From Escherichia coli (GTDB lineage: Bacteria; Pseudomonadota; Gammaproteobacteria; Enterobacterales; Enterobacteriaceae), in the NCBI RefSeq assembly GCF_003334305.1, contig NZ_QOWS01000006.1: a DNA stretch of 64,000 bases; one strand, given 5' to 3'. The first letter of the stretch is position 1. Every line of letters starts with the position of its first letter. Below are positions 5,928 through 10,685 of this stretch, piece after piece. The notes under the pieces were generated by a model. The model was given only the letters and a program-made list of their open reading frames with translations, had not been told where the DNA came from and searched no databases. The position numbers and the translations under genes were made by a program.

Positions 5928-6332
5928 TTAGTCGTCGCCGATAATTTTCAGCGTGGCCATATCCGATGAGTTCACCGTATGACCGGAAAAGGTGATTTTT
6001 GAGACGCAGCGTTTATTGTCGTTATCGCTGTTAATGTTGATCCAGTCAGTGGTTTGCCCTTCTTTTATTTCTGAAGGAATATTCAGGCTCTGACTGGCGC
6101 TACGGGCGGCTTTGAAATAAACCGATGCACCGCTTAACTGTAAATCGCCATGGTCGGCAGAGAGTTGTATGCGTTTAACAATTCGGCAAACAGGAAGTTT
6201 CAGCGCCAGATCGTTGGTTTCGTTACGTGGCATCGCAATGACGCCGAGGATTTTATGGTCGTTTGCCTGCGCCGTGCAGCACAGCATCAGACTAATCGCC
6301 AGGCTGGCGGAAATCGTAAAAACGGATTTCAT
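5928..6332 (-). CDS. yaaI: DUF2541 secreted protein YaaI
   Basis: 134-aa ORF with an N-terminal signal peptide ([23 protein letters not shown]). Confidence 0.88.
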
Positions 6333-6554
6333 AAGGATTCACTTAGTGGGGAGAGGTAGGGGGATGGATACCCACTAGTTTACTGCTGATAAAGAGAAGA
6401 TTCAGGTGCGTAATGTTTTCTTTTTATTACAATTTTTTGATGAATGTCTTGGCTGCGATTCATTCTTTATATGAATAAAATTGCTGTCAGTTTCACGTCT
6501 TGTCCTGCTATATCGCGAAATTTCTGCGCAAAAGCACAAAAAATTTTTGCATCT

Positions 6555-6590
6555 CCCCCTTGATGACGTGGGTTACGACCCCATTTAGTA
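6555..6590 (+). promoter_or_regulatory. dnaK heat-shock (sigma-32) promoter P1
   Basis: cccccTTGATG (-35-like) followed by CCCCATTTA (-10-like), matching the sigma-32 consensus CTTGAAA / CCCCATnT, about 120-150 bp upstream of dnaK. Confidence 0.6.
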
Positions 6591-6708
6591 GTCAACCGCA
6601 GTGAGTGAGTCTGCAAAAAAATGAAATTGGGCAGTTGAAACCAGACGTTTCGCCCCTATTACAGACTCACAACCACATGATGACCGAATATATAGTGGAG
6701 ACGTTTAG

Positions 6709-8625
6709 ATGGGTAAAATAATTGGTATCGACCTGGGTACTACCAACTCTTGTGTAGCGATTATGGATGGCACCACTCCTCGTGTGCTGGAGAACGCCGA
6801 AGGCGATCGCACCACGCCTTCTATCATTGCCTATACCCAGGATGGTGAAACTCTGGTTGGTCAGCCGGCTAAACGTCAGGCAGTGACGAACCCGCAAAAC
6901 ACCCTGTTTGCGATTAAACGCCTGATTGGCCGCCGCTTCCAGGACGAAGAAGTACAGCGTGATGTTTCCATCATGCCGTTCAAAATTATTGCTGCTGATA
7001 ACGGCGACGCATGGGTCGAAGTTAAAGGCCAGAAAATGGCACCGCCGCAGATCTCTGCTGAAGTGCTGAAAAAAATGAAGAAAACCGCTGAAGATTACTT
7101 GGGTGAACCGGTAACTGAAGCTGTTATCACCGTACCGGCATACTTTAACGATGCTCAGCGTCAGGCAACCAAAGACGCAGGCCGTATCGCTGGTCTGGAA
7201 GTAAAACGTATCATCAACGAACCGACCGCAGCTGCGCTGGCTTACGGTCTGGACAAAGGTACTGGCAACCGTACTATCGCGGTTTATGACCTGGGTGGTG
7301 GTACTTTCGATATTTCTATTATCGAAATCGACGAAGTTGACGGCGAAAAAACCTTCGAAGTTCTGGCTACCAACGGTGATACCCACCTGGGTGGTGAAGA
7401 CTTCGACAGCCGTCTGATCAACTACCTGGTTGAAGAATTCAAGAAAGATCAGGGCATTGACCTGCGCAACGATCCGCTGGCAATGCAGCGCCTGAAAGAA
7501 GCGGCAGAAAAAGCGAAAATCGAACTGTCTTCCGCTCAGCAGACCGACGTTAACCTGCCGTACATCACTGCAGATGCGACCGGTCCGAAACACATGAACA
7601 TCAAAGTGACTCGTGCGAAACTGGAAAGCCTGGTTGAAGATCTGGTAAACCGTTCCATTGAGCCGCTGAAAGTTGCACTGCAGGACGCTGGCCTGTCCGT
7701 ATCTGATATCGACGACGTTATCCTCGTTGGTGGTCAGACTCGTATGCCAATGGTTCAGAAGAAAGTTGCTGAGTTCTTTGGTAAAGAGCCGCGTAAAGAC
7801 GTTAACCCGGACGAAGCTGTAGCAATCGGTGCTGCTGTTCAGGGTGGTGTTCTGACTGGTGACGTGAAAGACGTACTGCTGCTGGACGTTACCCCGCTGT
7901 CTCTGGGTATCGAAACCATGGGCGGTGTGATGACGACGCTGATCGCGAAAAACACCACTATCCCGACCAAGCACAGCCAGGTGTTCTCTACCGCTGAAGA
8001 CAACCAGTCTGCGGTAACCATCCATGTGCTGCAGGGTGAACGTAAACGTGCGGCTGATAACAAATCTCTGGGTCAGTTCAACCTGGATGGTATCAACCCG
8101 GCACCGCGCGGCATGCCGCAGATCGAAGTTACCTTCGATATCGATGCTGACGGTATCCTGCACGTTTCCGCGAAAGATAAAAACAGCGGTAAAGAGCAGA
8201 AGATCACCATCAAGGCTTCTTCTGGTCTGAACGAAGATGAAATCCAGAAAATGGTACGCGACGCAGAAGCTAACGCCGAAGCTGACCGTAAGTTTGAAGA
8301 GCTGGTACAGACTCGCAACCAGGGCGACCATCTGCTGCACAGCACCCGTAAGCAGGTTGAAGAAGCAGGCGACAAACTGCCGGCTGACGACAAAACTGCT
8401 ATCGAGTCTGCACTGACTGCACTGGAAACTGCTCTGAAAGGTGAAGACAAAGCCGCTATCGAAGCGAAAATGCAGGAGCTGGCACAGGTTTCCCAGAAAC
8501 TGATGGAAATCGCCCAGCAGCAACATGCCCAGCAGCAGACTGCCGGTGCTGATGCTTCTGCAAACAACGCGAAAGATGACGATGTTGTCGACGCTGAATT
8601 TGAAGAAGTCAAAGACAAAAAATAA
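6709..8625 (+). CDS. dnaK: Molecular chaperone DnaK (Hsp70)
   Basis: 638-aa ORF with [17 protein letters not shown] and other Hsp70 signatures. Confidence 0.98.
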
Positions 8626-8713
8626 TCGCCCTATAAACGGGTAATTATACTGACACGGGCGAAGGGGAATTTCCTCTCCGCCCGTGCATTCATCTAGGGG
8701 CAATTTAAAAAAG

Positions 8714-9844
8714 ATGGCTAAGCAAGATTATTACGAGATTTTAGGCGTTTCCAAAACAGCGGAAGAGCGTGAAATCAAAAAGGCCTACAAACGCCTGGCC
8801 ATGAAATACCACCCGGACCGTAACCAGGGTGACAAAGAGGCCGAGGCGAAATTTAAAGAGATCAAGGAAGCTTATGAAGTTCTGACCGACTCGCAAAAAC
8901 GTGCGGCATACGATCAGTATGGTCATGCTGCGTTTGAGCAAGGCGGCATGGGCGGCGGCGGTTTTGGCGGCGGCGCAGACTTCAGCGATATTTTTGGTGA
9001 CGTTTTCGGCGATATTTTTGGCGGCGGACGTGGTCGTCAACGTGCGGCGCGCGGTGCTGATTTACGCTATAACATGGAGCTCACCCTCGAAGAAGCTGTA
9101 CGTGGCGTGACCAAAGAGATCCGCATTCCGACTCTGGAAGAGTGTGACGTTTGCCACGGTAGCGGTGCAAAACCAGGTACACAGCCGCAGACCTGTCCGA
9201 CCTGTCATGGTTCTGGTCAGGTGCAGATGCGTCAGGGATTCTTCGCTGTACAGCAGACCTGTCCACACTGTCAGGGCCGCGGTACGCTGATCAAAGATCC
9301 GTGCAACAAATGTCATGGTCATGGTCGTGTTGAGCGCAGCAAAACGCTGTCCGTTAAAATCCCGGCAGGGGTGGACACTGGAGACCGCATCCGTCTTGCG
9401 GGCGAAGGTGAAGCGGGCGAGCATGGCGCACCGGCAGGCGATCTGTACGTTCAGGTTCAGGTTAAACAGCACCCGATTTTCGAGCGTGAAGGCAACAACC
9501 TCTATTGCGAAGTCCCGATCAACTTCGCTATGGCGGCGCTGGGTGGCGAAATCGAAGTACCGACCCTTGATGGTCGCGTCAAACTGAAAGTGCCTGGCGA
9601 AACCCAGACCGGTAAGCTTTTCCGTATGCGCGGTAAAGGCGTCAAGTCTGTCCGCGGTGGCGCACAGGGTGATTTGCTGTGCCGCGTTGTCGTCGAAACA
9701 CCGGTAGGCCTGAACGAGAAGCAGAAACAGCTGCTGCAAGAGCTGCAAGAAAGCTTCGGTGGCCCAACCGGTGAGCACAACAGCCCGCGCTCAAAGAGCT
9801 TCTTTGATGGTGTGAAGAAGTTTTTTGACGACCTGACCCGCTAA
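8714..9844 (+). CDS. dnaJ: Co-chaperone DnaJ (Hsp40)
   Basis: ORF 8684..9844; ATG at 8714 gives the 376-aa protein [13 protein letters not shown]-domain HPD motif, Gly/Phe-rich region and four CxxCxGxG zinc-finger repeats. Confidence 0.97.
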
Positions 9845-9947: not shown

Positions 9948-10100
9948 TTACTCGGATTCGTAAGCCGTGAAAACAGCAACCTCCGTCTGGCCAGTTCGGA
10001 TGTGAACCTCACAGAGGTCTTTTCTCGTTACCAGCGCCGCCACTACGGCGGTGATACAGATGACGATCAGGGCGACAATCATCGCCTTATGCTGCTTCAT
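9948..10100 (-). CDS. hokC: Hok-family type I toxin HokC (Gef)
   Basis: 50-aa C-terminal portion of the 9948..10190 ORF: MKQHKAMIVALIVICITAVVAALVTRKDLCEVHIRTGQTEVAVFTAYESE, a small single-helix membrane peptide. Confidence 0.9.
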   Translation of the reverse strand: MKQHKAMIVALIVICITAVVAALVTRKDLCEVHIRTGQTEVAVFTAYESE

Positions 10101-10157
10101 TGCTCTCTTCTCCTTGACCTTACGGTCAGTAAGAGGCACTCTACATGTGTTCAGCAT
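9948..10157 (-). CDS. mokC: MokC, overlapping regulatory reading frame of hokC
   Basis: 69-aa frame MLNTCRV... that reads through hokC, as in hok/mok/sok loci. Confidence 0.7.
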   Translation of the reverse strand: MLNTCRVPLTDRKVKEKRAMKQHKAMIVALIVICITAVVAALVTRKDLCEVHIRTGQTEVAVFTAYESE

Positions 10158-10205
10158 ATAGGGGGCCTCGGGTTGATAGTAAAATATCACTCGGGGCTTT
10201 TCTCT
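10149..10205 (+). ncRNA. sokC: sokC antisense RNA (approximate position)
   Basis: Placed by analogy with hok/sok architecture, antisense to the mokC start region; boundaries are inferred, not read from the sequence. Confidence 0.35.
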
Positions 10206-10685
10206 ATCTGCCGTTCAGCTAATGCCTGAGACAGATAGCCTCAAGCACCCGCCGCTATTATATCGCTCTCTTTAACCCATTCTGTTTTATCGATTCTAAT
10301 CCTGAAGACGCCTCGCATTTTTGTGGCGTAATTTTTTAATGATTTAATTATTTAACTTTAATTTATCTCTTTATCGCAATTATTGACGACAAGCTGGATT
10401 ATTTTTGAAATATTGTCCTAACAAATAACGCCGACTGACAAGAAATTAATTATTACTTTTCCTAATTAATCCCTCAGAAATCCTGACCTTAAGCTATGAT
10501 TATCAGGGCTTAGGGTCACCCGTTAGCGCTTACAGCCGTCAAAAACTCATCTCACCGCTGATGGCGCAAATCCTTTAATTGCTCGTAAAAAACGAGTTAT
10601 TCCTACACTATAATCTGATTTTAACGATGATTTGTGCGGGGTAAAATAGTAAAAACGATCTATTCACCTGAAAGAGAAATAAAAA

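Follow-up and report, generated by a model that had tools for sequence, protein, structure and literature searches.

The dnaK-dnaJ operon raises a question that has been brought up again for Salmonella: how can one operon yield different amounts of DnaK and DnaJ? The original prediction for the E. coli region studied here pointed to a sigma-32 promoter and a short inverted repeat in front of dnaK, and to a GC-rich hairpin between dnaK and dnaJ that might set the ratio of the two proteins. We consider it likely, with a probability of roughly 80%, that this is the classical promoter and leader region of the dnaK-dnaJ heat-shock operon of E. coli, along with a known inter-cistronic structure. The sigma-32 promoter and the dnaK-dnaJ hairpin are real, but both have already been catalogued, and everything in the finding of the original prediction is already known or ordinary. 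What may remain new lies in two RNA stems, one in the leader of the P1 transcript and one at the base of the hairpin.

The yaaI-dnaK-dnaJ locus

The window, meaning the whole stretch of 64,000 nucleotides of E. coli DNA that was analysed, contains the following genes and start signals; all positions are those of the window.

5928-6332, minus strand: yaaI, encoding a DUF2541 family protein, divergent from dnaK (open reading frame list; RefSeq annotation of AMSCJX02 and K-12)
6697-6711, plus strand: dnaK Shine-Dalgarno sequence GGAG (6697-6700) and start codon (6709-6711), invariant in the spacer and leader alignments
6709-8625, plus strand: dnaK coding sequence, 638 amino acids (open reading frame list; RefSeq annotation of AMSCJX02 and K-12)
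8714-9844, plus strand: dnaJ coding sequence, 376 amino acids (open reading frame list; RefSeq annotation of AMSCJX02 and K-12)

According to the open reading frame list and the RefSeq annotation, the intergenic spacer between yaaI and dnaK covers positions 6333-6708 (376 nt). It is present in 5425 of 5426 complete E. coli genomes, with 100% identity to strain AMSCJX02 and 97.1% identity to K-12, and the flanking genes annotated in RefSeq are yaaI, dnaK and dnaJ. A GTG at 8684 in the open reading frame list is a mere mechanical upstream extension of the dnaJ reading frame. Relatives were compared using one genome per species in a scan anchored on the 5′ coding sequence of dnaK, which covered 120 loci and makes no assumption on the content of the spacer.

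Sigma-32 promoters in front of dnaK

Two sigma-32 promoters, P1 and P2, each placed behind an A/T tract, drive dnaK.

6535-6550, plus strand: A6T5 tract directly upstream of the P1 -35 element, a palindrome found by the repeat search; AAAAATTTTTT-type tract in relatives
6552-6587, plus strand: dnaK promoter P1 (sigma-32), with -35 element TCTCCCCCTTGAT at 6552-6564 and -10 element CCCCATTTA at 6579-6587
6635-6661, plus strand: dnaK promoter P2 (sigma-32), with -35 element TTGAAA at 6635-6640 and -10 element CCCCTATTA at 6653-6661

The sigma-32 consensus (TNtCNCcCTTGAA for the -35 and CCCCATtTa for the -10 element) was taken as quoted in PMC12077118, and the -10 element was allowed to lie 13-17 nt from the -35 element. 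The -35 element of P1 agrees with this published consensus at 12 of 13 positions and its -10 element at nine of nine; the two are separated by a spacer of 14 nt, and transcription from P1 would start near 6594. In P2 the -35 region GGGCAGTTGAAA, which includes the TTGAAA, was scored as a sigma-32 -35 element, with a spacer of 13 nt when counted from GTTGAA (6634-6639), the hexamer equivalent to CTTGAA. P2 is nearly invariant in the alignments of relatives' spacers, and across more than 80 loci the hexamers of both promoters stay the same while their spacers vary.

On the plus strand of the whole window a loose sigma-32 pattern matches only P1 and, at 6635-6658, P2. Taken by itself this pattern occurs at chance level in the window (3 found versus 2.35 expected); our call of P1 rests on position and phylogeny, with phylogeny decisive. 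In essentially all of the Enterobacteriaceae and Erwiniaceae loci fetched, CTTGAT...CCCCAT is located at -148 to -152 from the dnaK ATG; hexamers of the P1 type lie farther upstream in Proteus (-186 to -188) and, in Aeromonas, mostly at -163 and up to -199. Across about 90 loci CTTGAT/CTTGAA and CCCCAT are fixed, while the sequence between the hexamers drifts and exists in many versions. SELEX with the RpoH holoenzyme gave a peak at K-12 position 12044 (PMC5493296), which corresponds to window position 6590, and a comparison of Salmonella with E. coli noted "two putative RpoH binding sites 100% conserved" (PMC12077118). Consensus agreement, conserved position and the SELEX peak together bear out the P1-like sigma-32 element that had been proposed for the dnaK leader.

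The A/T tract before P1 is kept in almost every Enterobacterales locus shown, whether or not yaaI is present, and the A-tract that precedes P2 (6615-6621) is kept in most aligned leaders. Both are placed ahead of their promoters in the manner of UP elements and may act as such. The sigma-32 heat-shock promoters P1 and P2 of E. coli dnaK were reportedly described by Cowing et al. in 1985 (PNAS 82:2679), a work cited in PMC12077118. The promoters found here belong to the same gene, match the -35 and -10 consensus, lie at the same position relative to the ATG and are identical in sequence to those of K-12 except for one spacer base (GGGTTAC here versus GGTTTAC in K-12). There is no difference of substance from the known P1 and P2; this is merely another E. 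coli strain.

A minor sigma-70 promoter of dnaK, P3, has been reported in the older literature; our sigma-70 scan of the plus strand did not pick it up. In many dnaK and groE operons, among them those of Gram-positive bacteria, the leader carries an inverted repeat, the CIRCE/HrcA operator. With up to 3 mismatches allowed, CIRCE (TTAGCACTC-N9-GAGTGCTAA) gave 0 matches in the window, and unlike in CIRCE/HrcA systems the control of dnaK in Enterobacterales is by sigma-32.

The upstream repeat and the yaaI side of the spacer

Farther upstream, in the AT-rich part of the spacer, the original prediction had marked an inverted repeat.

6440-6476, no strand assigned: repeat of the original prediction, made up of ATGAAT (6440-6445), ATTCAT (6458-6463) and ATGAAT (6471-6476)
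6410-6432, minus strand: GTAAT-N11-ATTAC block with minus-strand TTGTAATAA, in an alignment of 21 Enterobacteriaceae spacers; candidate yaaI promoter element

The repeat exists, but the arms quoted for it (gatgaatgtc...gattcattc) are complementary over just 6 bp, between the first ATGAAT and the ATTCAT, around a loop of 12 nt, and the same ATTCAT can also pair with the second ATGAAT. With loops of 3-20 nt allowed, the 376-nt spacer has 5 perfect 6-bp inverted repeats versus 1.97 ± 1.76 in 2000 dinucleotide shuffles; at least one is present in 78% of the shuffles, and 5 or more are present in 9%. A repeat search with a minimum length of 7 did not report this repeat. Folded as RNA, the 51-nt repeat region reaches -6.8 kcal/mol (z = -0.47), which 55 of 200 shuffles equal, and neither strand gives a remarkable fold (z about -0.47). 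An RNA or DNA hairpin was rejected on account of this chance-level count and fold.

The alignment of the 21 yaaI-dnaK spacers shows a TGAAT at 6441-6445 that is invariant (21/21) and a second one at 6472 that is nearly so, the two copies being 30-31 bp apart when counted by eye in several genomes. The right arm ATTCAT, in contrast, is kept only in E. coli-like Escherichia and in Pseudocitrobacter. In E. albertii ATGAAT is intact, but AATTAT stands where E. coli has ATTCAT, with no compensating change, and the right arm is also gone in Citrobacter, Kluyvera and Klebsiella. This pattern, with TGAAT kept and ATTCAT lost, points to short recognition motifs and not to a hairpin or palindrome. The upstream repeat is a 6-bp coincidence among three ATGAAT/ATTCAT copies, and no hairpin or palindrome is conserved there.

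It is therefore very improbable that positions 6440-6463 form a palindromic operator, or a DNA or RNA hairpin, that regulates transcription of dnaK. Such a reading could draw on the existence of the repeat, on the somewhat high number of short inverted repeats in the spacer and on the conservation of the arms, around a variable loop, in three Escherichia lineages and in Pseudocitrobacter. However, beyond the shortness of the repeat and the loss of its right arm in E. albertii and most genera, some 95 bp separate it from the P1 -35 element downstream, and the whole block is absent from genera in which P1, P2 and the leader are unchanged. A conserved palindrome was rejected because of the arm loss in the alignment and the absence in genomes without yaaI. 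The alignment and the co-occurrence with yaaI have largely refuted the operator or hairpin reading already.

The conserved TGAAT pentamers are confined to genomes with yaaI upstream of dnaK. In Enterobacter, Kosakonia, Phytobacter, Cedecea, Mangrovibacter and others, TGAAT, GTAAT-N11-ATTAC (6410-6430) and TTGTAATAA are all missing; the genera without the TGAAT block have another gene upstream, with P1, the A/T tract, P2 and the leader unchanged. As TGAAT co-occurs with yaaI alone, the pentamers probably belong to the control region of yaaI and not to that of dnaK. Together with the adjacent TTGNNATAA block they may be recognition elements of RNA polymerase or of a regulator at a divergent yaaI promoter. 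The minus-strand TTGTAATAA has counterparts in Klebsiella (TTGACATAAT), Kluyvera (TTGTCATAA(T)) and Superficieibacter (TTGAAATAAT), and, read in the direction of yaaI, these resemble -35 or extended -10 elements. Co-occurrence is the basis of this promoter assignment, and the candidate yaaI -10 element in E. coli (AATAAA) is without the usual final T, which speaks against it. A minus-strand sigma-70-like match, CTGACA-17-AAGAAT (6490-6462), was rejected as the yaaI promoter; its -35 element is not conserved even among Escherichia lineages, and the match is probably due to chance. To our knowledge TGAAT does not convincingly fit the sites of Cra, Fur, RcsB, TorR, MlrA, CpxR, PhoP or others. PhoP sites have been reported to be absent in Salmonella (PMC12077118). 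The table of transcription start sites of Kim et al. 2012 lists no yaaI start but also misses dnaK P1 and P2, which makes it uninformative on this point, and we found neither a start site nor a regulator of yaaI in the available literature.

A covarying stem in the leader of the P1 transcript

The original prediction did not list another inverted repeat of the dnaK leader, one that has evolutionary support.

6605-6670, plus strand: P1 leader stem-loop, with arms GUGAGUCUG (6605-6613) and CAGACUCAC (6662-6670), in DNA GTGAGTCTG and CAGACTCAC

This is the strongest inverted repeat in the spacer (12 nt with one mismatch), matched by 4% of shuffles. In a P1 transcript starting near the position given above, the stem closes a loop that holds the entire P2 promoter, and positions 6600-6675 fold with -21 kcal/mol (z -3.07). 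P2 transcripts start inside the 3′ arm and are without the stem; their 5′ region is unstructured (z +0.93).

RNAalifold gave no consensus structure for the mixed alignment of 51 leaders, and the stem was then tested explicitly. Among these 51 sequences, 87.5% of the cells pair, as compared to 24-47% after shifting the partner by 1-3 columns. Six of the nine pairs have changed on both sides, and the double changes amount to 32 cells versus 11.9 ± 3.6 in shuffles, a value reached in 0 of 500. Examples of paired arms are GAGUC/GACUC, GAACC/GGUUC, GGAUC/GAUCC and GAAGC/GUUUC. In minimum-energy folds of single leaders an enclosing stem with quite different arms is seen in Edwardsiella (GUUGUUACC/GGUAACAAC), Leminorella, Mangrovibacter, Erwinia and Proteus. 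Outside the Enterobacteriaceae the support consists of such folds only. Duplex energies for single species of the distant families were mostly not significant, with fixed windows cutting some of the arms.

Rfam holds no family at the position of this stem, and we did not find a description of a dnaK leader structure in the available literature, which is not proof of novelty. We lean towards a role in P1 transcripts only, with the stem as a putative module for insulation or stability.

The hairpin between dnaK and dnaJ

The spacer between dnaK and dnaJ (8626-8713, 88 nt) holds the GC hairpin named in the original prediction and, in the sense strand, a match to an Rfam family.

8636-8713, plus strand: match to Rfam tpke11 (RF02031), 69.6 bits versus a gathering score of 43, E = 2.7e-14, model positions 1-77 of 77
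8654-8686, plus strand: GC hairpin with outer stem CACGGGCG / CGCCCGUG (DNA CGCCCGTG) and inner stem AGGGGA / UCCUCU
8696-8716, plus strand: dnaJ translation start, with AGGGG (8696-8700) as the only Shine-Dalgarno-like run, 13 nt before the ATG (8714-8716)

The hairpin consists of an 8-bp outer stem, one unpaired base per side, a 6-bp inner stem and a 3-nt loop. Its fold of -25.4 kcal/mol (z = -5.9) is equalled by 0 of 200 shuffles, and the pattern ACGGGCG-N6-30-CGCCCGT occurs 1 time in the window versus 0.01 expected. The structure proposed between the two genes is therefore confirmed, and it is the known tpke11, a candidate sRNA of Rivas et al. 2001, matched here over its full length, at the same position and with the same layout of two hairpins. 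Each E. coli genome carries one copy, without RefSeq annotation, and owing to this single copy a REP-like repeat family was rejected. Proteus, Edwardsiella, Erwinia, Leminorella and Enterobacter also have tpke11 above the Rfam threshold.

The two stems have evolved in different ways. For the inner stem there are 29 variants with a loop of normal length, all of which form a hairpin, and one aligned pair shows AU, GU and GC types; this covariation indicates that the structure is under selection. The outer stem is invariant over 7 bp (ACGGGCG / CGCCCGU) in 38 of 38 aligned spacers and in 66 of 66 loci carrying the hairpin, and this invariance reaches Aeromonas, whose element scores below the Rfam threshold. 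A sequence frozen in this way points to a constraint beyond structure alone, and a plain role in stability leaves its absolute invariance unexplained.

The hairpin resembles intrinsic terminators in being a GC-rich stem-loop, here of about 14 bp. However, the 3′ U-run that defines them is missing, and it is thus not a canonical terminator: the tail is CAUUCAUCUAGG in the window and, in relatives, GCAUUCAU... or GCUCGCAUG... throughout, none of the 66 being U-rich, and the terminator scan did not list the hairpin. A GC hairpin with a U-run is found at the same place in some more distant gammaproteobacteria (loci L068 and L071). As a speculation, a terminator-like ancestor may have been kept in Enterobacterales for another purpose.

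Unequal expression of dnaK and dnaJ

A post-transcriptional role of the tpke11 hairpin in the expression of dnaK versus dnaJ has already been proposed and is plausible, though unproven. The hairpin would act after transcription as a stable barrier or as a landmark for processing. As a barrier it would let mRNA that carries dnaK only outlast the dnaJ part, and it would at the same time be a structured spacer in front of the weak ribosome-binding site of dnaJ; the two effects together would result in more DnaK than DnaJ. In the predicted fold of the 88-nt spacer the Shine-Dalgarno-like run of dnaJ is paired, as GGGGC, to a CGCCC located just behind the dnaK stop codon, and weak initiation of translation probably contributes to the low level of DnaJ. 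Differential mRNA decay within operons is set by inter-cistronic stabiliser hairpins such as the REP hairpins of malE-malF and the hairpin of the pap operon. The similarity to these systems comprises a stable GC hairpin without a U-run, a position between a strongly and a weakly expressed gene, and a monocistronic upstream mRNA as the main species. In contrast to the malE-malF REP hairpins, the dnaK-dnaJ hairpin is single-copy and not a REP element, and its barrier function is putative.

Published RNA data bear on this explanation in both directions. In E. coli the main dnaK Northern band of 2.1 kb contains dnaK and short flanks only, and mutants of RNase E and RNase III affect dnaK and dnaJ in different ways (PMC3082872). 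The length from the P1 start to the end of the hairpin adds up to about 2.09 kb (115 + 1917 + ~62) and fits the 2.1-kb band. In Salmonella the RNA levels of dnaK, spacer and dnaJ are equal in high Mg2+; in low Mg2+ dnaK mRNA is about 2.5-fold above dnaJ, and the half-life of dnaJ is 2.5-fold shorter in a PhoP-dependent manner (PMC12077118). The authors of that study found nothing like an intrinsic terminator and suggest cleavage or a role of tpke11 (PMC12077118). However, a Salmonella spacer amplicon ending at +49, inside the hairpin, tracked dnaJ and not dnaK (PMC12077118), which is a poor fit to a simple barrier with a 3′ end just after the hairpin. The dnaK-dnaJ hairpin differs in this respect from the stabiliser hairpins, as these amplicon data place no clean 3′ end after it. 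We found nothing relevant on 3′-end mapping of dnaK-dnaJ in the available literature.

Two other explanations have to be weighed against a post-transcriptional role in cis. The hairpin had originally been put forward as an attenuator, that is a partial intrinsic terminator at which some polymerases stop, so that dnaJ is transcribed less than dnaK. A strong GC stem-loop is indeed in the right place, a dnaK-only transcript of 2.1 kb agrees with the distance from P1 to the hairpin, and L068 and L071 have the U-run there. However, this run is missing in E. coli and all 66 relatives, with the terminator scan silent and terminator-like sequence absent also in the judgement of the Salmonella authors; in addition, the three Salmonella mRNA regions show the same level in high Mg2+, and where they differ, in low Mg2+, the half-life of dnaJ is altered as well (PMC12077118). 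We regard attenuation as improbable. The original suggestion that the hairpin helps to set the DnaK:DnaJ ratio is reasonable all the same and has been raised in print (PMC12077118); it is the attenuator part of it that lacks the defining U-run.

The other explanation takes tpke11 as an independent trans-acting sRNA, made from its own promoter or by processing, in which the hairpin serves as a scaffold and which pairs with other mRNAs. Rfam lists tpke11 as an sRNA, a Northern signal is credited to Rivas 2001 in papers citing that work, an extended Tpke11 RNA binds pgsA, prlC and yehU fragments in vitro (PMC6172242), and a PhoP-dependent change is seen in Salmonella (PMC12077118). Against this, a promoter scan of the plus strand gave no promoter-like site in or just before the spacer, and the published size of about 370 nt exceeds the 88-nt spacer, so that the Northern signal is at least partly a fragment of the dnaK-dnaJ mRNA. 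Furthermore, the position between dnaK and dnaJ is fixed in every genome examined, and the function of tpke11 is called "putative" or "uncharacterized" in PMC3082872 and PMC6172242. Such an sRNA seems unlikely to us, if somewhat less so than attenuation. We thus rank the post-transcriptional role in cis first, the trans-acting sRNA second and attenuation of transcription third.

Implications for the dnaK-dnaJ operon

With these results the upstream repeat is taken out of the dnaK story, and its TGAAT motifs are assigned, as a probable matter, to the uncharacterised neighbour yaaI. For the question of DnaK and DnaJ amounts there are now handles in the invariant outer stem of tpke11, the missing U-run and the distant Shine-Dalgarno-like run of dnaJ. 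To the knowledge of tpke11 our analysis adds that the outer 7 bp are invariant out to Aeromonas and that the element is single-copy. The remaining novelty consists of the covarying P1-leader stem and this invariant outer stem.

Judged from sequence comparison, it is a tentative possibility that the P1 leader stem and the frozen outer stem of tpke11 are undescribed cis-regulatory RNA elements. The covarying leader structure sets P1 transcripts apart from P2 transcripts. If it is such an element, P1 mRNAs would carry a structured module that P2 mRNAs are without, and the two mRNA classes might then differ in stability or in how they are processed, with RNase III and RNase E as possible enzymes; alternatively, the stem might insulate the ribosome-binding region, which is unstructured and common to both classes, from the additional 75 nt. 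For the outer stem, a sequence frozen from Escherichia to Aeromonas would imply a sequence-specific partner, a protein or a nuclease, and it would be this partner that sets the expression of dnaK versus dnaJ.

The dnaK leader and the spacer upstream

In the leader of the P1 transcript we found a 9-bp stem (arms 6605-6613 and 6662-6670) that encloses promoter P2 and shows compensatory changes across Enterobacteriaceae. P2 transcripts lack this stem, and Rfam holds no family covering it. Both sigma-32 promoters of dnaK are preceded by A/T tracts:

6535-6550, A/T tract before P1, 10-20 nt upstream of its -35
6615-6621, A/T tract before P2, 10-20 nt upstream of its -35

Almost every Enterobacterales locus shown keeps the first, and most aligned leaders keep the second; both have a placement resembling that of UP elements. 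Within 6410-6476 lie TGAAT pentamers spaced ∼30-31 bp apart (counted by eye), a GTAAT-N11-ATTAC element and a minus-strand TTGNNATAA block, whose conservation is limited to genomes with yaaI as a neighbour. The literature available yielded neither a regulator nor a start site of yaaI.

For K-12 coordinates 11787-14168, a published genome-wide table of start sites (PMC3415461, Table S1) gives no start for yaaI and none at dnaK P1 or P2, where the one entry is 12157, with 4 reads. This table is therefore uninformative on whether start sites lie near the repeats.

Among the 5426 complete E. coli genomes searched for the yaaI-dnaK spacer, one had no match at all, and three matches were located on plasmids (three plasmid records). 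NZ_AP027788.1 has two matching places, the better of which matches only the dnaK-proximal 236 nt, adjoining a PAP2 phosphatase gene.

Flanking and overlapping features

9948-10250, minus strand, type I toxin-antitoxin locus hokC/mokC-sokC, scoring 122 bits against Rfam sok
6667-8703, minus strand, 678-codon open reading frame antisense to the whole of dnaK

The toxin-antitoxin locus lies directly 3' of dnaJ in this strain, whereas in K-12 an IS421/IS186 copy, missing here, sits between the two. Antisense ORFs opposite hsp70 genes have long been noted; the present one is a mechanical ORF without evidence for gene status.

The tpke11 hairpin

In several relatives the dnaK-dnaJ spacer is enlarged. 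Intestinirhabdus alba (L085:4453-4668) carries ∼125 nt inserted within the tpke11 hairpin loop, leaving the outer arms intact; Rfam detection is lost. Elsewhere 65-190 extra nt lie 5' or 3' of the hairpin (L087:8424-8580; L041, L045, L058 (Mangrovibacter); L096 (Aeromonas cavernicola)). The outer stem ACGGGCG/CGCCCGU (8655-8661 / 8679-8685) is unchanged in all 66 hairpin-carrying dnaK loci (within L003-L122, one genome per species), Aeromonas included, while the inner stem shows 29 compensated variants in the same loci. This difference between the two stems suggests that the outer stem may be recognised in a sequence-specific manner.
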